DNA from: a virus
Lineage: Duplodnaviria > Heunggongvirae > Uroviricota > Caudoviricetes
Strand: one strand, 5' to 3'
Length of the DNA stretch: 5,836 nucleotides
IMG/VR virus record: IMGVR_UViG_2545824709_000006
Shown here piece after piece: positions 1 through 5,836 of the stretch. Below the pieces are notes generated by a model. That model made no database searches. It saw nothing but the letters and a program-made list of their open reading frames with translations, and was not told where the DNA came from. Every line of letters starts with the position of its first letter. The first letter of the stretch is position 1. The position numbers and the translations under genes were made by a program.

Positions 1-300
1 TCTCAGTATGTATCGCTGGCCTACACACAGCGGCTTAAGGAAGCCGGATTACTGGCATCAACAGGAAGTACAGGCGACTCGTATGACAACGCGATGGCGG
101 AGAGCATCAATGGTCTTTACAAAGCGGAGGTAATACACCGTAAGAGCTGGAAAAACCGTGCAGAAGTGGAACTGGCCACACTCACGTGGGTGGACTGGTA
201 TAACAATCGACGATTGCTGGAAAGGCTGGGCCATACTCCTCCGGCAGAAGCAGAAAAAGCTTATTATGCTTCCATCGGAAACGATGATCTGGCAGCCTGA
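1..300 (+). CDS. IS3-family (IS629-like) DDE transposase OrfB, C-terminal fragment; 5' end lies outside the window
   Basis: Frame-1 ORF open from base 1 to TGA at 298-300. Translation ...GDSYDNAMAESINGLYKAEV...WYNNRRLLERLGHTPPAEAE... has the D-x-x-x-AMAES/W-Y-N-x-R-R signature typical of the C-terminus of rve-type (IS3-family) transposases, which includes the conserved glutamate region of the DDE catalytic domain. Confidence 0.85.
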   Translation, partial: SQYVSLAYTQRLKEAGLLASTGSTGDSYDNAMAESINGLYKAEVIHRKSWKNRAEVELATLTWVDWYNNRRLLERLGHTPPAEAEKAYYASIGNDDLAA

Positions 301-342
301 GTTCACAGATAAAACACTCTCCAGGAAACCCGGGGCGGTTCA
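1..342 (+). mobile_element. Right end of an IS629/IS1203/IS3411-like insertion sequence, with terminal inverted repeat at about 301-342
   Basis: The reverse complement of 301-342 is TGAACCGCCCCGGGTTTCCTGGAGAG..., which matches the IS629-group terminus as I recall it (5'-TGAACCGCCCCGGG...). The element ends ...GGTTCA at 342, giving the 5'-TG...CA-3' termini typical of the IS3 family. The left end and target-site duplication are outside the window. Confidence 0.6.
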
Positions 343-501
343 TTTCGATTAATGGAGGTCCCTTGCACAGATGGCAATCATGCTCAATGTCAAATTGCCA
401 TACAGGGCTTGCGATTCAGGGCGGTATTAGAGCTGCTAATGATCCTTTGTATTGCGCCTAAATCCACTAAATTGATTTTCAACAATCAACTTGCCATAAT
501 T

Positions 502-534
502 AAGTCACCGGAGTTTGAACTCCTCCGGTGACTT
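502..534. other. Perfect 12-bp inverted repeat (stem-loop) in the noncoding gap between the IS end and ybcN
   Basis: AAGTCACCGGAG (502-513), a 9-nt loop, then CTCCGGTGACTT (523-534), the exact reverse complement. There is no U-tract after it on the + strand and only a weak A/T-rich flank on the - strand. Confidence 0.45.
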
Positions 535-653
535 CTGCGCTAAACGGGGACGTTTATGCGCACATACAATCCAACCTCTCTTCTCCATTCACAGATGCAG
601 AAATGCACCTGCGATATTTTGCATCCAGCGTTTGATCTCTGCGGAGGTGAAGC

Positions 654-1109
654 GTGAACCTCCCACAAGATGGTATCAAATTGCATCGCGGTAACTTCAC
701 CGCTATCGGTCGGCAGATCCAGCCTTATCTGGAGGACGGCAAATGCTTTCGCATGGTGCTTAAACCGTGGCGCGAGAGACGCAGTCTTTCCCAGAATGCA
801 CTCAGCCACATGTGGTACAGCGAAATCAGTGAATACCTCATCAGCAAGGGTAAAACGTTCGCCACTCCAGCTTGGGTAAAAGATGCTCTCAAACACACAT
901 ATCTCGGTTATGAAACCAAAGACCTGGTTGATGTCGTAACCGGTGATATCACCACTATCCAGTCGTTACGCCATACCTCCGATCTTGATACCGGAGAGAT
1001 GTATGTCTTCCTGTGTAAGGTTGAAGCCTGGGCGATGAATATTGGCTGCCACCTGACTATTCCGCAGAGCTGCGAGTTCCAGCAGCTCCGCGACAAACAG
1101 GAGGCGTAA
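654..1109 (+). CDS. ybcN: DLP12-type prophage protein YbcN (reported DNA base-flipping protein), 151 aa
   Basis: GTG start at 654 with GGAGG about 8 nt upstream. The 151-aa product [21 protein letters not shown]... matches my recollection of E. coli YbcN in length and sequence. TAA stop at 1107-1109. Confidence 0.85.
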
Positions 1110-1279
1110 TGGCTACACCGCTTATTCGTGTCATGAACGGACACATCTACAGAGTACCAAATCGTCGTAAGCGTAAACCGGAGCTGAAGCCTTCCGAAAT
1201 ACCAACACTGCTCGGATATACCGCCAGCCTGGTTGATAAAAAATGGTTGCGACTGGCAGCAAGGAGGAATCATGGCTGA
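1109..1279 (+). CDS. ninE: NinE-like small basic protein, 56 aa
   Basis: ATG at 1109-1111 overlaps the ybcN stop (TAATG). Product [56 protein letters not shown] is basic and sits in the position and size expected for ninE. It is missing from the ORF track only because it is short. Confidence 0.75.
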   Translation: MATPLIRVMNGHIYRVPNRRKRKPELKPSEIPTLLGYTASLVDKKWLRLAARRNHG

Positions 1280-1562
1280 TTTGAGAAAAGCAGCGCGTAG
1301 TCGGGAATGCCAGGTAAGAATCCCTGGCGTATGTAATGGCAACCCTGAAACGTCTGTACTGGCACATATCCGGCTGACTGGATTGTGCGGCACCGGTACC
1401 AAACCGCCAGACCTGATTGCCACCATTGCATGTTCTGCCTGCCACGACGAAATCGACCGCCGCACACATTTTGTCGATGCTGCATATGCAAAAGAATGCG
1501 CGCTGGAAGGTATGGCGAGAACACAGGTTATCTGGCTGAAAGAGGGGGTTATTAAGGCGTGA
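1272..1562 (+). CDS. ybcO: YbcO, putative Zn-binding nuclease (DUF1364-like), 96 aa
   Basis: ATG at 1272 preceded by AGGAGG, overlapping the ninE stop (ATGGCTGA). Product [26 protein letters not shown]...[13 protein letters not shown]... carries a four-cysteine motif (C-x7-C ... C-x2-C-H-D-E). The track ORF 1233..1562 is the same frame with an upstream extension. Confidence 0.85.
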
Positions 1563-1921
1563 ATACCTACAGCATCACATTACCCTGGCCTCCGAGCAAT
1601 AATCGCTATTACCGCCATAATCGCGGGCGCACGCACGTCAGCGCAGAGGGGCAGGCATACCGCGATAACGTCGCCCGAATCATTAAAAACGCAATGCTGG
1701 ATATCGGCCTGGCTATGCCTGTGAAAATCCGCATTGAGTGCCACATGCCGGATCGCCGTCGCCGTGACCTGGATAATCTGCAAAAAGCCGCTTTTGACGC
1801 ACTCACTAAAGCAGGTTTCTGGCTGGATGATGCTCAGGTCGTTGATTACCGCGTTGTGAAGATGCCGGTTGTCAAAGGTGGAAAGCTGGAACTGACCATC
1901 ACTGAACTGGGAGATGAATGA
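1559..1921 (+). CDS. rusA: RusA Holliday-junction resolvase (endodeoxyribonuclease), 120 aa
   Basis: GTG start at 1559 overlaps the ybcO stop (GTGA). Product [82 protein letters not shown]... matches RusA as I recall it, including the acidic cluster. Confidence 0.95.
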
Positions 1922-2058
1922 TGTTTGAGTTTTATATGGCAGAACTTCTTCGCCACCGCTGGATGCGCCTGCGCTTATATCGTTTCCCCGGTTCTGTTTT
2001 GACCGATTACCGAATACTGAAGAATTACGCCAAAACACTGACAGGAGCAGGAGTATGA
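1918..2058 (+). CDS. ylcG: YlcG-like small protein, 46 aa
   Basis: ATGATG at 1918-1923 overlaps the rusA stop (ATGA). Product [46 protein letters not shown] matches DLP12 YlcG as I recall it. Small size makes it the least certain gene here. Confidence 0.6.
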
Positions 2059-2143
2059 AGTCAGAGATAACAATCAACTAATACTGTTTTGTTGATTTTT
2101 GCTTGTAATTGGCGTTCTGGTCTGATTTTTGTGGAGTAAGTTG

Positions 2144-2527
2144 ATGCGTGATATTCAGATGGTTCTTGAGCGTTGGGGAGCGTGGGCGGCTAATAATCAT
2201 GAAGATGTGACCTGGTCGTCCATTGCCGCCGGTTTTAAGGGATTAATTACTTCAAAAGTAAAATCTCGCCCGCAATGTTGTGACGATGACGCGATGATTA
2301 TTTGCGGGTGCATGGCCCGTCTGAAAAAGAACAACAGCGATTTGCACGATTTATTAGTAGATTATTATGTAGTCGGTATGACATTCATGTCACTGGCAGG
2401 TAAGCATTGCTGCTCTGATGGTTATATCGGGAAAAGGTTACAGAAGGCTGAGGGCATAATTGAAGGGATGTTAATGGCATTAGATATCCGGTTAGAGATG
2501 GATATCGTTGTTAATAACTCTAATTAA
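2144..2527 (+). CDS. quuD: Q-family late-gene antitermination protein, 127 aa
   Basis: ATG at 2144. Product [26 protein letters not shown]...[16 protein letters not shown]... matches DLP12 QuuD (YbcQ) as I recall it. The in-frame TTG at 2129 reported by the ORF track is a less likely start. Confidence 0.85.
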
Positions 2528-2560
2528 TATGCCAATTGTTTACTAAAAATTATTAAAAAT

Positions 2561-2578
2561 GGGGCGTTGAGACGCCCC
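2561..2578 (-). terminator. Intrinsic terminator for - strand transcription (distal nmpC terminator); also shields quuD from antisense read-in
   Basis: GGGGCG / CGCCCC 6-bp GC stem with a 6-nt loop. On the - strand it is followed by ATTTTTAATAATTTTT; on the + strand it is followed by an A-rich run (CAAAAATAAA), so it should be far weaker for + strand transcription. Confidence 0.55.
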
Positions 2579-2644
2579 CAAAAATAAAGGGTAATATATA
2601 ACAGAAGGTTTATATAGTTAGAAGCAAGGTTGTGCTCCTAAAGG

Positions 2645-2700
2645 AAGTGGCTTGAGGGAGCCACTTATATGTTGGGGAGGCAAAGCCTCCCGCAACATAT
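2645..2700 (-). terminator. Tandem stem-loops immediately 3' of the nmpC stop codon (proximal terminator or mRNA-stabilising hairpins)
   Basis: Hairpin 2667-2700: ATATGTTGGGGAGG / CCTCCC(G)CAACATAT, a 14-bp stem with one bulge and a 5-nt loop. Hairpin 2645-2666: AAGTGGC / GCCACTT. On the - strand they lie 15-70 nt after the nmpC stop and are followed by TTCCTTTAGG. The first is followed by CTTTT on the + strand, so partial bidirectional activity is possible. Confidence 0.5.
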
Positions 2701-2715
2701 CTTTTAGTAATCAAA

Positions 2716-3798
2716 TTAGAACTGGTAAACCATACCTACAGCAACGATATCATCGGTAGCAACGCCAGATGCTTTCGTGAAATCGCTCTTATCAATCAGG
2801 TTGATTTTGTAATCAACAAAAGTGGACATATTTTTGTTGAAGTAATAGGTTGCACCTACATCAATATATTCAACCAGGTCCTGATCACCCCACGCACCCA
2901 AGTCTTTTCCTTTAGATTGCAGGTAAGCAACGGACGGACGCAGACCGAAGTCGAACTGATATTGTGCAACTACTTCGAAGTTTTGTGCTTTGTTGGCAAT
3001 ATGGTTATTACCAAAAACAGTCATGTTCTGGGTTTCAGAATAGGTGGTAGCCAGATAGATGTTGTTCGCATCATATTTCAGACCAGCTGCCCATACTTCA
3101 GCATTTTGACCAGATGCATTCAGGCTGTTGTTACCGTAGATAACCTGATTATTAGTGCGGTCAGATTTAGCATAGGTTGCACCTACACCGAATCCTTCAT
3201 ACTCATAAGTAGTGGAGAAACCGAAACCATCACCATTAGCTTCAGTTACGTCAGTGCGGTCATTTTTACCCTGATACTGAGCAGCAAAGTTCAGACCATC
3301 AACCAGACCAAAGAAGTCATTGTTACGATAAGTTGCAACACCTGTGGTGCGACCAGTCATGAATACATCTGTTTGGGTCCAGGTATCGCCACCGAATTCT
3401 GGCAGAACGTCGGTCCATGCACCAATATCGTATGCTACACCGTAGTTACGGCCATAATCGATGGAGCCGTAGTCACCGAATTTCAGGCCAGCGAAGGCAA
3501 GACGGGTTTTATCTTTGGAGGAACCTTGAGATTCAGCGCGGTTGCCTTTGAATTCATATTCCCACTGACCGAAACCAGTCAGTTGATCGTTGATTTGGGT
3601 TTCACCTTTGAAGCCAAGACGGGCATAAGTAGTATCACCATCATCTGCATCATTAGAGGAGAAGTAGTGCTTAGCATTAACTTTCCCGTACAGATCCAGC
3701 TTGTTACTGTCTTTATTATAAATTTCAGCTGCCTGAGCAGACATCGCCATCAGTACTGATGCAGCTACAGCAGAAATTGCCACTGTTAATTTTTTCAT
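2716..3798 (-). CDS. nmpC: Outer-membrane general porin of the OmpC/OmpF/PhoE family (NmpC/OmpD-like), 360-aa precursor, apparently intact
   Basis: ATG is the complement of 3796-3798, with an AAGGG Shine-Dalgarno upstream. N-terminus [30 protein letters not shown] is a classic signal peptide; the C-terminus ends ...VYQF with the terminal Phe typical of beta-barrel OMPs. Porin motifs such as LPEFGGDT and YDANNIYLA are conserved throughout. The longer track ORF (2716..3858) adds a 20-aa upstream extension that I reject. Confidence 0.9.
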
Positions 3799-4385
3799 CG
3801 TGAGCCCTTTTTTTGAACTATTATTAAAAAATGATGTCACTGCGCGATAAATATTCATCTAATCAATGTGATTATTTCAAGATGTAAGTTTTGGTTTCTC
3901 ATTTGATTTGTGAAGTAGATCTCTATTTTTATCTGAACTTTTTCTATCGAATCCTATTCATGGCTCTTGGCTGAATAAAAATAAATCTATTGGCCAATTT
4001 ATATTAATGGCTGTTATTTATAAGTGCTCTATAATTTGAAGGTTCAATTTAAACCAGCTAAAAATAACGCTGGAAATTATTTGTTGGTTATTTGTTGAGA
4101 TTTGCTTATGTATTTGTAGTGGTGTTTTCAATACTCGGTAGCATTCTCGCAAATATCATTTAGTGGTTTACGTACGTAAAAAATTGGTTATGCTGTTAAG
4201 AGTGGTTACTTCGTCACACAGCTTAAACCCGCCGTCGAGCGGGTTTTTCCATTTTTTGAGTCTCGATATTAGCTGATAACCCAATACCTGAGTTATTCAC
4301 TGACTCCGAGTCTGTTACGTTTCTGCTTTTTTGCGATACGTTGTATTCCCTCAATTTACACCCGCTTTGTCTGCGAGGTGGGGTT
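3799..4385. promoter_or_regulatory. Roughly 590-bp AT-rich divergent intergenic region holding the nmpC promoter and 5'UTR (- strand) and the leader upstream of essD (+ strand)
   Basis: No convincing ORF on either strand and markedly AT-rich. Contains a perfect TATAAT hexamer at 4030-4035 (+) without a good -35. Exact promoters could not be fixed by eye. Confidence 0.4.
4225..4257 (+). terminator. Intrinsic terminator on the + strand about 130 nt upstream of essD (candidate tR'-like late-leader terminator)
   Basis: AAACCCGC (4225-4232), loop CGTCGA, GCGGGTTT (4239-4246), all eight pairs Watson-Crick, followed by TTCCATTTTTT. On the - strand the same hairpin is followed only by TTTAAGC. Confidence 0.55.
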
Positions 4386-4601
4386 ATGAAATCCATGGAT
4401 AAGTTAACAACGGGTGTCGCCTATGGCACCTCAGCAGGTAGTGCCGGTTACTGGTTTTTACAGCTGCTCGATAAAGTCACGCCCTCACAGTGGGCAGCAA
4501 TAGGTGTGCTGGGTAGCTTGGTATTTGGCCTGCTGACGTACCTGACAAACCTTTATTTCAAGATTAAAGAAGATAAGCGCAAGGCTGCGAGAGGTGAATA
4601 A
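4386..4601 (+). CDS. essD: Class II holin (phage 21 S-like pinholin), 71 aa, with dual-start motif
   Basis: GAGGTGG precedes ATG at 4386. Product [71 protein letters not shown] has two hydrophobic segments and a charged C-terminus. Met1-Lys2-Ser3-Met4 gives two in-frame starts, the antiholin/holin arrangement known for S21. The track ORF 4341..4601 has a 15-codon extension that I reject. Confidence 0.9.
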
Positions 4602-5098
4602 TGCCTCCATCATTACGAAAAGCCGTTGCTGCTGCTATTGGTGGCGGAGCAATTGCTATAGCATCAGTGTTAATCACTGGCCCAAGTGGTAACGATGGTC
4701 TGGAAGGTGTCAGCTACATACCATACAAAGATATCGTTGGCGTATGGACTGTATGTCACGGGCATACAGGAAAAGACATCATTCCCGGTAAAACGTATAC
4801 CGAAGCAGAATGCAAAGCCCTCCTGAATAAAGACCTTGCCACGGTAGCCAGACAAATTAACCCGTACATCAAAGTCGATATACCGGAAACAACGCGCGGC
4901 GCTCTTTACTCGTTCGTCTATAACGTGGGCGCAGGCAATTTCAGAACATCTACTCTTCTTCGCAAAATAAACCAGGGCGATATCAAGGGCGCATGTGACC
5001 AGCTACGTCGCTGGGCATACGCTGGCGGTAAGCAATGGAAAGGCCTGATGACTCGTCGTGAGATTGAGCGTGAGGTCTGTTTGTGGGGGCAACAATGA
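4601..5098 (+). CDS. rrrD: SAR (signal-anchor-release) endolysin, T4-lysozyme-like muramidase, 165 aa
   Basis: ATG at 4601 overlaps the essD stop (TAATG). The N-terminus [27 protein letters not shown] is a Gly/Ala-rich weakly hydrophobic SAR domain, followed by the catalytic region [25 protein letters not shown] containing the Glu/Asp/Thr residues of T4-type lysozymes. Matches phage 21 R / RrrD as I recall it. Confidence 0.92.
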
Positions 5099-5562
5099 GC
5101 AGGGTAACCGCGATTATCTCCGCTCTGGTTATCTGCATCATCGTCTGCCTGTCATGGGCTGTTAATCATTACCGTGATAATGCAATCGCCTACAAAGAAC
5201 AGCGCGATAACAAGGCCAGTGAACTGGAGAAGGCGAACGCCACCATTACTGACATGCAGCAGCGCCAGCGTGATGCTGATGCACTCGATGATAAATACAC
5301 GAAGGAGTTAGCTGATGCGAAAGCTGAAAATGATGCTCTTCGGCGCAAGCTTGATAATGGTGGTCGGGTGCTCGTCAAAGGAAAATGCCCTGTGCCATCC
5401 TCAGCCGAAACCTCCAGCGCCTCCGGCATGGGCAATGATGCCACCGTCGAACTCTCTCCAGTTGCTGGACGAAACGTTCTCGGTATCCGGGACGGAATTA
5501 TCCGCGACCAAACAGCACTGAGAACGCTTCAGGAATACATCAGGACGCAATGCCTTCGATGA
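5095..5562 (+). CDS. rzpD: Rz-like i-spanin (inner-membrane spanin subunit), 155 aa
   Basis: ATG at 5095 overlaps the rrrD stop (ATGA). Product [38 protein letters not shown]...[17 protein letters not shown]... has an N-terminal TM segment and a coiled-coil-like periplasmic part, and is very similar to lambda Rz as I recall it. The alternative GTG at 5083 is less likely. Confidence 0.88.
5315..5521 (+). CDS. rzoD: Rz1-like o-spanin (outer-membrane lipoprotein) embedded in the +1 frame of rzpD
   Basis: ORF lies entirely inside rzpD in the +1 frame. Product [44 protein letters not shown]... has a signal peptide with a lipobox-like VVGC and a proline-rich mature region, as in lambda Rz1. Exact start and mature length are uncertain. 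Confidence 0.72.
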
Positions 5563-5736
5563 TAGCGATAATTTTACTCATCATCCTTCACATCTGGCTC
5601 TGTAGACAGGGTGGTGCTCACTTCTGGAGTGAATCCAGATTAAACATCTCATTGCTGATGCTTGATATTGAGCATTTTGCGCGCGGTAAGGGGCTGCGTT
5701 GAGATAAGAGCCAGTCATTACAAATACCAGGATTTA

Positions 5737-5759
5737 GCCTCGCATTCGCGGGGCTTTTT
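5737..5759 (+). terminator. Intrinsic terminator closing the + strand lysis operon
   Basis: GCCTCGC (5737-5743), loop ATTC, GCGGGGC (5748-5754) forming a 7-bp GC-rich stem with one G-U pair, followed by TTTTT (5755-5759). Confidence 0.6.
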
Positions 5760-5771
5760 ATTGCCATTACA

Positions 5772-5797
5772 AAAGCCACTTCCTACAGAGTGGCTTT
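5772..5797 (-). terminator. Stem-loop with a T-tract on the - strand, a candidate terminator for a - strand gene beyond the 3' end of the window
   Basis: AAAGCCACT (5772-5780), 8-nt loop, AGTGGCTTT (5789-5797), a perfect 9-bp stem. On the - strand it is followed by TTTTGTAATGG. Together with 5737-5759 it forms a convergent terminator pair. Confidence 0.4.
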
Positions 5798-5836
5798 GAT
5801 AATGGTTTATACCCTACACGGGATAACTTAACTGAT

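Follow-up and report, generated by a model that had tools for sequence, protein, structure and literature searches.

An intact NmpC/Lc-type porin gene between the Q gene and the probable late promoter of a lambdoid (pro)phage

When a lambdoid (pro)phage carries a porin gene between its late antiterminator gene (Q) and its holin gene, in reverse orientation to both, the question arises of how porin expression and the late transcription of the phage are kept compatible. In essence, the answer depends on the side of the porin gene from which late transcription starts: if it starts beside Q, it has to run through the porin gene in the antisense direction, and if it starts beside the lysis genes, it does not. 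Here, we consider this question for a stretch of 5,836 bp (IMG/VR virus record IMGVR_UViG_2545824709_000006), referred to in its entirety as the window, in which the porin gene is flanked by quuD on one side and by essD-rrrD-rzpD on the other (Table 1).

Table 1. Features of the porin locus, with their positions in the window and the basis of each assignment
Feature	Position	Strand	Basis
quuD, Q-family late antiterminator, 127 aa	2144-2527	+	Pfam PF06530 (Phage_antitermQ), E 4e-53
Porin 3' UTR, ~165 nt, highly structured	2552-2715	-	Terminator and fold
Long imperfect hairpin ATATGTTGGGGAGGC-AAA-GCCTCCCGCAACATAT, then CTTTTAG	2668-2702	+	Read from sequence, plus-strand fold
NmpC/Lc/OmpD-type general porin, intact, 360-aa precursor	2716-3798	-	ORF, Pfam, PDB matches, alignments
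AT-rich divergent control region, GC 0.299	3799-4166	.	Composition, promoter candidates
PR' homologue: -35 TTTACG 4167-4172, 16-nt spacer, -10 TATGCT 4189-4194	4167-4201	+	blastn, alignment
GC-rich hairpin, stem 4225-4246 (~+25 to +46 relative to the predicted late start), then TTTTTCCATTTTTT	4225-4259	+	Terminator scan
essD, S21-type (P21-type) holin, MKSM dual start	4386-4601	+	ORF, RefSeq, Pfam
rrrD, phage lysozyme, hydrophobic N-terminal segment	4601-5098	+	ORF, RefSeq, Pfam
rzpD (Rz)	5095-5562	+	ORF, RefSeq, Pfam
rzoD, embedded in rzpD	5315-5521	+	Within late lysis cassette 4386-5562

An intact allele of the lambdoid-phage porin gene

The porin reading frame runs from an ATG to a TAA codon over 1083 nt, a length divisible by 3, and the window sequence reads through it without an internal stop or a frameshift. 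RefSeq makes the identical CDS call in a genome that matches window 343-5836 at 100%. A longer frame, opening at 3858, merely adds 20 codons upstream. The Pfam profile Porin_1 (PF00267) is covered from position 1 to 337 of 337 (E 3.1e-153), and the solved porins OmpK37, OmpC, OmpK36 and PhoE match at E values of 1e-130 to 1e-137. The mature N termini of these solved chains align to residue 24 (AEIYNKD), which implies a predicted signal peptide of 23 residues ending in AQA. The LPEFGGD constriction motif of loop 3 and the C-terminal VYQF, with the terminal Phe of the β-signal, are both present, and both are invariant in an alignment of the window porin with NmpC, an OmpD-like porin and OmpC. 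An earlier note on this DNA had described a full-length frame with signal peptide, porin motifs and C-terminal Phe, and had proposed an alignment of this kind as a check for frameshifts; the description holds, and the alignment contains none. Close homology to solved structures suggests that the product is a trimeric, 16-stranded β-barrel that conducts solutes.

The window thus carries, as an intact allele, the classical porin gene of lambdoid phages, known as nmpC in DLP12 and lc in PA-2. The phage NmpC/Lc porins, the IS5 disruption in K-12, intact alleles elsewhere and the IpeX sRNA are already known from the literature. At the protein level, the window porin is 90.5% identical to K-12 NmpC, 77-79% identical to chromosomal OmpD-type porins and 60.7% identical to K-12 OmpC. 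The porins of phages PhiR34_1 and PhiR68_2 are 100% identical to it, those of about 30 other phage genomes are 94-98% identical, and, among 5,426 complete E. coli genomes, 2,502 carry 80% or more of the gene. PhiR34_1, the phage in which the neighbourhood was checked, is 97% identical to window 472-5339; its porin has the same neighbours in the same Q-porin-holin order and is read in the opposite direction to Q and the lysis genes. No material difference separates the window porin from the lambdoid phage porins as a group (Lc/protein 2 of PA-2 and the "OmpD" of PhiR34_1, PhiR68_2, Perceval, ev099 and 4A7, among others), with PA-2 Lc itself standing outside the comparison. Lambdoid porin genes are commonly annotated as OmpD or "OmpC."

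The RefSeq name for the window gene is OmpC, and the protein does pass the NCBIfam cut-off for "porin OmpC" (518 versus 484 bits), as a member of the same general-porin fold family. However, it belongs to another clade and lies outside the ompC-micF locus. We therefore rejected orthology with OmpC on the grounds of the low identity, the prophage locus and the failure to find micF nearby; the pipeline label "ompC" is a subfamily name and no sign of orthology. The nearest relatives outside Escherichia are Salmonella OmpD and chromosomal porins of Citrobacter and Enterobacter, which share length and motifs with the window porin. The 3 kb around their genes contain no homologue of Q, the holin, the lysozyme or RusA, and these genes are thus chromosomal rather than phage-borne.

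A further comparison is with nmpC of DLP12 (qsr') in E. coli K-12, where locus and gene order (rusA-ylcG-quuD-porin-essD-rrrD-rzpD) are the same. DNA identity is 99.7% for quuD, 97% for the porin 3' UTR, 97-98% for the promoter region and 100% for the block that carries the putative late promoter, PR', whereas it is just 87% for the porin CDS. Within the CDS, codons 1-120 are 98-100% identical, but codons 121-360 only 67-92%, with indels at loop positions. On this pattern of identity, the window porin is a mosaic allele that differs from K-12 nmpC. The K-12 gene is interrupted by IS5 close to its 3' end, as the earlier note had stated, whereas the window gene is whole. A further difference is that bor follows rzpD in K-12 and is lacking from the genome that matches the window.

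A self-contained cassette and its expression

In base composition, the porin gene (GC 0.437, GC3 0.399) is distinct from the pooled nin genes (GC 0.511) and the lysis genes (0.502), and the 368 bp upstream of it are lower still, at 0.299. The gene had been proposed to be AT-richer than its flanks, with a GC comparison as the check; run here, that comparison agrees with the proposal for the nin and lysis genes, yet quuD is also low, at 0.427. K-12 ompC is AT-poorer than the window porin (GC 0.506, GC3 0.571), and the OmpD-type genes in the chromosomes of Salmonella, Citrobacter and Enterobacter have GC contents of 0.489-0.515 and GC3 values of 0.53-0.59.

The 3' end of the transcript is marked by an intrinsic terminator, with its stem at 2578-2561 on the minus strand and a T-tract. 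The minus-strand fold of 2545-2730 reaches -63.2 kcal/mol (z -8.7), a stability equalled by 0 of 200 shuffled sequences. We infer that this 3' UTR is the counterpart of the IpeX sRNA region of DLP12 and PA-2. According to the literature, IpeX is co-transcribed with the lambdoid phage porin gene, a known lysogenic-conversion gene. A permissive Rfam search of the whole window, with a library that contains no IpeX family, returned a sub-threshold match to STnc560 alone (5634-5825, E 0.44), whose 20.5 bits fall short of the gathering score of 55.

On the other side, the first ~200 bp of 3799-4166 probably contain the porin promoter and 5' UTR. In K-12, the nmpC promoter is of the σ70 type, is located no more than 199 bp ahead of the start codon, is active by 5' RACE and drives the IS5 transposase; CRP activates it, and OmpR, IHF and MprA repress it (PMC11677980). 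The minus-strand candidates in the window are a -35 TTGAAA at 3880-3875 and a -10 GAATAT at 3856-3851, of weak consensus, and a weak CRP-like site at 3909-3924 has two mismatches and is not above chance. A consensus promoter scan of 2400-4450 gave no sites by its criteria, with both PR' and the porin promoter below the cut-off.

Taken with its own terminator and a promoter region 97-98% identical to the one mapped in K-12, the porin CDS forms a cassette at about 2477-4165, consisting of the CDS, the structured 3' UTR and the AT-rich promoter region. In Sakai Sp5 and Stx2-II, which lack the porin cassette, the PR' block directly adjoins Q; the 1,689 bp of 2477-4165 stand where these phages have 88 bp and, relative to Stx phages, take the place of the last 24 codons of Q. 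The reading of the gene as a moron between antiterminator and lysis genes is therefore well founded.

Whether the cassette is expressed is a separate matter, as "likely H-NS silencing" had been suggested for it. In its strong form, this would make the porin an intact yet effectively silent passenger, quiescent, repressed by H-NS and devoid of current function. The very AT-rich upstream region and the low GC3 of the gene are compatible with such a state. For E. coli B, nmpC is reportedly named a "quiescent" porin gene in the title of a 1998 paper by Prilipov, and thus porin expression may depend on strain and condition. Against silence stand the activity of the K-12 promoter, a 16.5-fold rise in nmpC mRNA at 37 °C (PMC8544407) and the porin (NmpC) of prophage Perceval, 94% identical to the window porin, which is expressed in LF82 lysogens at 10-fold above the local prophage background (PMC9928086). 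The frame, moreover, is undisrupted in phage genomes and in many genomes of E. coli, and divergence from K-12 is concentrated where surface loops carry indels, a pattern that fits an exposed protein under selection. The suggestion of silencing is weakened by these reports: full H-NS silencing is unlikely, because the promoter is active in K-12 and so is a lysogen's copy of a closely similar porin, and we regard a silent passenger as improbable.

Position of the late promoter

The QuuD protein, which shares its RefSeq accession with K-12 QuuD and is a distant match to the solved Q21, is 78% identical over residues 1-126 to the 144-aa Q of the Sakai Sp5/933W type. Homology to Sakai Q stops after residue 120 (RLEMD), and the final seven codons are unrelated. 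At the DNA level, blastn homology to Sakai extends over window 2144-2476, breaks off and is taken up again at 4166-4248, which is the sequence that adjoins the Q stop codon in Sakai and Stx2-II; a relic of the stop-codon region, GGTTTACGTACGTAA, is found at 4165-4179. The two parts of a junction that is continuous in Stx phages thus lie on either side of the porin cassette.

This displaced block matters for the position of PR'. For the Sakai Stx phages, mapping places PR' near Q and tR' 258 nt further downstream (Sy et al. 2020, PMC7547250). Counting back from tR' places the Sp5 start about 22 nt past the Q stop codon, with a TATCAT -10 element ending 7 nt before it and a TTTACG -35 element at 16-nt spacing. 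Both hexamers, their spacing and the +1 region are kept at window 4167-4209, with a predicted late start near A4201, within the conserved TAAGAGTGGTTAC. The Stx2-II record annotates a putative -35/-10 pair about 155-180 nt past Q; this pair was dropped as a reference for PR', since the measured 258-nt transcript implies a Q-proximal start. At 4/6 each, the window hexamers are weak and were passed over by the consensus scan; they are nevertheless the sole promoter-like site at 8/12 or better on the plus strand of 4100-4260. By homology to the mapped promoter, PR' is most likely located at 4167-4201, so that its block lies 1.64 kb from the quuD stop codon, as opposed to overlapping the end of Q in Stx phages.

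The earlier note had taken the opposite position, namely that Q-dependent late transcription heading for essD must cross the porin gene antisense and that porin expression and late-gene activity should be mutually antagonistic, which implies a PR' directly downstream of quuD. This would be the natural expectation from lambda and the Stx phages, in which PR' adjoins Q, and from a porin gene that separates quuD from essD and is read the other way. The window has just one homologue of the PR' block, however, and it is on the essD side of the porin; across 363 phage records, the block occurs in one copy per genome. In the quuD-porin spacer (2528-2715), blastn and the scans found neither a PR' block nor a promoter-like site; it holds the hairpins and terminator of the porin 3' UTR. 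The phage genomes with identical Q and porin have the same layout. We therefore consider an obligatory antisense passage highly improbable. The accompanying description of the porin as convergent to late transcription is correct with respect to quuD, and hence to early rightward transcription; with respect to the PR' homologue, the porin gene is divergent.

Downstream of the predicted start, the hairpin at 4225-4246 keeps its stem and varies in its loop among Sakai, PhiR40_1 and K-12, and conservation of the PR' block stops just past the T-tract that follows it. As the sole intrinsic-terminator-like site between PR' and essD, it is a candidate for tR'. In Sakai, the homologous hairpin sits inside the 258-nt PR' transcript and thus does not stop all transcripts there. 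The window accordingly resembles the PR'-tR' region of 933W/Sakai, the source of the StxS sRNA, in having a related Q and a conserved -35 element, spacer, -10 element, +1 region and first hairpin, but the Stx sequence past this hairpin, to which the 74-nt StxS part and the mapped tR' belong, shows no conservation in the window. The arrangement of cargo also differs: in Stx phages it (tRNAs and stx) is found downstream of tR' on the late strand, whereas in the window phage it is upstream of PR' on the opposite strand.

Closer to the lysis genes, a hairpin at 4361-4382 covers the Shine-Dalgarno sequence of essD. A σE-dependent promoter for the DLP12 lysis cassette was reportedly described by Rueggeberg in 2015, as relayed in a citing paper. 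Of the two primers given in the literature for a DLP12 "promoter fragment" (-121 to +650), the forward one maps to 3726-3745; the reverse one has no match in the window even with three mismatches and no exact match in K-12, and the σE start is not placeable on the window. Work cited in PMC7918800 puts the DLP12 lysis cassette under Q-dependent control.

Late transcription and a possible cargo slot

We favour a reading in which the intact NmpC/Lc porin is a self-contained cassette between Q and PR', with late transcription divergent from the porin gene and not crossing it, and we put its probability at about 0.8. In a lysogen, the porin would be transcribed from its own σ70 promoter, with CRP as its activator, OmpR, IHF and MprA as its repressors and induction at 37 °C. 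The product would be exported by Sec and assembled by BAM into the trimeric diffusion pore. The 3' UTR would yield IpeX, lowering OmpC and OmpF, and the phage would therefore partly swap the surface porins of its host. Q acts on RNA polymerase initiating at PR', and Q-modified transcription would thus begin some 400 bp upstream of where porin translation starts and lead away from the gene. With Q, late transcription would pass the hairpin at 4225-4246 and enter essD-rrrD-rzpD.

On this reading of a divergent PR', the sole possible source of antisense transcription over the porin would be early rightward read-through past quuD. Such transcription, initiated at PR and antiterminated by N during lytic growth, could still produce some antagonism between induction and porin expression. 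The two genes are convergent and only 188 bp apart. A hairpin at 2668-2702 faces the incoming polymerase and may act as a terminator of quuD read-through before it enters the porin gene, yet it has only a short T-run and was neither scored nor reported by the terminator scan, and N-modified polymerase of lambda ignores intrinsic terminators. N and the nut sites lie outside the window. Many DLP12-type prophages, on the other hand, are defective, and read-through of this kind does not make late-gene expression dependent on crossing the porin. We hold it to be a genuine possibility, although not the one that we would expect. The divergent arrangement of PR' and porin carries a correction to the picture of antagonism: in DLP12-type prophages, PR' is apparently displaced beyond the porin, and so Q-dependent antisense interference with porin expression is not expected.

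The position of the cassette may have a wider significance. PhiR40_1 carries a different reverse-strand gene, of 148 aa, in the same slot, with the PR' block beyond it. A lipocalin gene in 1H12 was considered as a third example and set aside as weak, the full PR' block being absent there and represented only by a -35-like GTTTACAATCGTAAAAA at L005 5755. It is conceivable, although we regard it as doubtful, that the junction between Q codon ~120 and the PR' -35 element is a recurrent slot for reverse-oriented cargo expressed in lysogeny, in which the Q tail is recoded and PR' is preserved. If so, cargo in this position would be shielded from late transcription that depends on Q. As a corollary, constitutive starts at PR' would give a leader RNA of ~55 nt ending at the hairpin 4225-4246, with a possible sRNA role like that of StxS. 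Reverse-strand cargo between Q and PR' would then be a minor illustration of the way in which lambdoid genomes make room for lysogenic-conversion genes.

An intact prophage porin of the NmpC clade

The window region is a DLP12-type nin-Q-lysis region. DLP12-type prophage homology begins at position 343, and from there to its end the window matches several E. coli chromosomes at 100% identity, where the annotated order of the lambdoid prophage is ybcN-ninE-ybcO-rusA-ylcG-quuD, a reverse-strand porin and essD-rrrD-Rz. Pfam identifies the neighboring genes as a Q antiterminator, a P21-type holin, a phage lysozyme, Rz, RusA and YbcO, and K-12 DLP12 has the same gene order. An IS3-family insertion sequence contributes its 3' end to the remaining left part of the window; the junction of this part with the prophage (342/343) was found as one continuous match in 0 of 5,426 complete E. 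coli genomes. On the right side, past rzpD (14208-15412 in L001, the matching prophage genome), a 50-aa ORF is followed by DUF1398 and YlcI genes; bor, which follows rzpD in K-12 and phage PhiR34_1, is absent from this prophage. An Rfam STnc560 match at 5634-5825 is weak and not significant (20.5 bits versus a gathering score of 55, E 0.44).

Coordinates of features in the window
Feature	Position	Strand	Basis or remark
3' end of IS3-family insertion sequence	1-342		
ORF within it	94-300		rve_3/rve_2 integrase-core domains
Stretch identical to E. coli chromosomes	343-5836		
quuD	2144-2527	+	
Homology to Sakai Q gene	2144-2476		
Segment replacing Stx-phage 88 bp	2477-4165		
QuuD tail codons	2504-2527	+	
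Probable IpeX region counterpart	2552-2715		
Porin intrinsic terminator	stem 2578-2561 + T-tract	-	terminator scan
Hairpin facing quuD	2668-2702	+	long, short T-run
Porin ORF	2716-3798	-	ATG to TAA
Relic of other Q's stop-codon region	4165-4179		GGTTTACGTACGTAA
PR' block	4166-4248		blastn
TTTACG-16-TATGCT	4167-4194	+	
Candidate tR' hairpin	4225-4246		terminator scan
Leader, PR' hairpin to essD	4261-4385		
Hairpin over essD Shine-Dalgarno	4361-4382		predicted
essD and start of rrrD	4386-4720	+	
essD-rrrD-rzpD lysis cassette	4386-5562	+	
rzoD	5315-5521		nested in rzpD
Right of rzpD	5563-5836		

The porin ORF is uninterrupted (1083 nt, 360 aa) and covers the whole Pfam Porin_1 profile (positions 1-337 of 337, E 3e-153). 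Solved enterobacterial porins match it at E 1e-130 to 1e-137, and their mature N termini align to residue 24, implying a signal peptide of 23 residues. In the alignment, the protein has the PEFGGD motif and ends in YQF. The full-length, intact porin described in the earlier note is thus borne out, as is its statement that K-12 nmpC is disrupted by IS5, which sits near the 3' end of the K-12 gene.

The protein shares 90.5% identity with K-12 NmpC, 77-79% with OmpD-type porins encoded on the chromosomes of other genera and 60.7% with K-12 OmpC; among 80 related loci (one genome per species), Q or RusA homologues lie nearby only at Escherichia loci. It passes the RefSeq “porin OmpC” model (518 versus 484 bits), a label that reflects a subfamily HMM, not orthology. 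Phages PhiR34_1 and PhiR68_2 encode the identical porin, and ~30 other lambdoid phage genomes encode proteins 94-98% identical; in PhiR34_1, the phage checked for order, Q is followed by the reverse-strand porin and the holin. Of the 5,426 complete E. coli genomes, 2,502 contain 80% or more of the gene, and intact alleles in other strains, such as EAEC 042, are already in print (PMC2808357).

Relative to K-12 nmpC (L089), the allele reads as a mosaic, with DNA identities of 98-100% over codons 1-120, 67-92% over codons 121-360 and 97-100% in the flanks. The indels fall at variable, loop-like positions, the pattern expected of a surface-exposed protein. Stacked hairpins fill the ~165 nt of the minus strand that run from the stop codon to the terminator. 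This 3' flank folds at -63.2 kcal/mol (z -8.7; 0 of 200 shuffles equally stable) and is 97% identical to K-12, versus 87% for the coding sequence; it is probably the counterpart of the IpeX sRNA region.

A late promoter homologue beyond the porin

QuuD is 78% identical to Q of the 933W/Sakai-type Stx phages and belongs to the same Q family. In Stx phages, the late promoter PR' is closely associated with Q, and the 3' end of a short PR' transcript, at the terminator tR', lies 258 nt downstream (Sy et al. 2020, PMC7547250). Position 1303 of the Sakai Sp5 locus is the end of the tR' hairpin and T-tract, and counting back 258 nt places the start near A1046, 22 nt past the Q stop codon, with a -10 (TATCAT) 7 nt upstream and a -35 (TTTACG) 16 nt further up, within the last Q codons. 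The coordinate 1,266,460 of Sy et al. also falls on 1303 after a shift of 142 nt, which we take to be the difference between record versions. A “putative -35/-10” at 5091-5116 of the Stx2 phage II record (L004, AP005154), ~155-180 nt past Q, was rejected as misfitting the published PR'-tR' distance.

The PR' block, the stretch homologous to this region, has a single match in the window. The -35, the spacer length, the -10 and TAAGAGTGGTTAC at +1 are all conserved in the alignment with Sakai; the hairpin stem is conserved, its loop is variable, and conservation ends just past the T-tract. The hexamers are weak in the window, and the pair tabulated is the sole plus-strand site between 4100 and 4260 that is promoter-like at 8/12 or better. 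K-12 DLP12 has the block at 100% identity, and in PhiR34_1 it lies likewise beyond the porin. A single copy per genome is present in 363 phage records; 401 records have the Q family. Compared with K-12, the block above the leader is 100% and essD 98% identical; the leader is 86% identical, with a 16-nt indel.

Whereas the PR' block overlaps the end of Q in Stx phages, porin-carrying phages have it immediately past the porin. In place of the 88 bp that encode the last 24 Q residues in Stx phages, the window has 1,689 bp holding a new 7-residue Q tail, the porin 3' UTR, the porin and an AT-rich control region. Homology of QuuD to the 144-aa Sakai/933W-type Q ends after RLEMD (residue 120), and PhiR34_1 and PhiR68_2 carry the short Q unchanged. 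The comparison suggests that PR' has been retained beyond the inserted segment. The tabulated stop-codon relic of the other Q lies 1.64 kb away, at the PR' -35. Reverse-strand cargo between Q and PR' clearly recurs in PhiR40_1 (L006, 3866-4544), where a closely related Q is followed by a reverse-strand 148-aa hypothetical gene and then the PR' block. It recurs weakly in 1H12 (L005, 3878-5771): a reverse-strand Blc lipocalin gene follows a closely related Q, and all that was found of the PR' block is a -35-like GTTTACAATCGTAAAAA at 5755, past an extra plus-strand gene.

Within the lysis cassette, the EssD N terminus (MKSMDK) has the dual start of S21-type pinholins, and the essD Shine-Dalgarno sequence is covered by a predicted hairpin. 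RrrD has a hydrophobic N-terminal segment typical of signal-anchor-release endolysins, and rzoD encodes an Rz1-type lipoprotein (lipobox LIMVVGC) in a different frame from rzpD, an embedded arrangement as in lambda Rz/Rz1.

Transcription around and from the porin

Lambdoid Q proteins act on polymerase initiating at PR', so Q-dependent late transcription should start near 4201 and run rightward. The late transcript would pass through the candidate tR' hairpin, the sole terminator-like site between PR' and essD, and into essD. In Sakai, the homologous first hairpin is inside the 258-nt transcript and therefore lets at least some transcripts through. For the DLP12 lysis genes, control by Q is cited in PMC7918800; for the reported sigma-E promoter of the cassette also cited there, primer matching gave no position in the window.

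The porin lies upstream of PR' and is divergently oriented, so late transcription should not cross it, and no promoter-like site was found in the quuD-porin spacer, which is made up of 3' structures belonging to the porin. The proposal that antisense late transcription makes prophage late-gene activity and porin expression mutually antagonistic is therefore unsupported. Early rightward transcription that continues past quuD may run antisense to the porin during induction; the plus-strand hairpin facing quuD may stop it.

The earlier note also held the porin and its upstream region to be more AT-rich than their flanks and likely silenced by H-NS. The porin (GC 0.437, GC3 0.399) and the 368 bp upstream (0.299) are indeed below the nin (0.511) and lysis (0.502) genes, but quuD (0.427) is as low as the porin. 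The porin is more AT-rich than core ompC (GC 0.506, GC3 0.571) and the chromosomal OmpD-type genes of Salmonella, Citrobacter and Enterobacter (GC3 0.53-0.59). Its upstream region alone is not diagnostic, because the ompC-micF spacer has a GC of 0.329. The K-12 nmpC promoter, described as a typical sigma-70 promoter and at most 199 bp from the ATG, has CRP as its activator and OmpR, IHF and MprA as repressors; in glycerol minimal medium it is active enough to drive the IS5 transposase (PMC11677980). [quoted passage not shown] Such results speak against blanket silencing; thermoregulation leaves room for some H-NS contribution.

The intact general porin with its own terminator, the cassette boundaries and the PR' homologue beyond them are shown by this analysis; the literature supplies the porin's promoter and regulators, IpeX, porin expression in lysogens and the control of the DLP12 lysis genes by Q. 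An intact phage-borne porin is already known, and the displaced PR' and the recurrent reverse-strand cargo between Q and PR', which earlier studies of the DLP12 lysis-cassette promoter may already imply, are modest points. The porin would be exported by Sec and assembled by BAM into a trimeric pore, partly replacing OmpC and OmpF and so affecting phage and colicin receptors.
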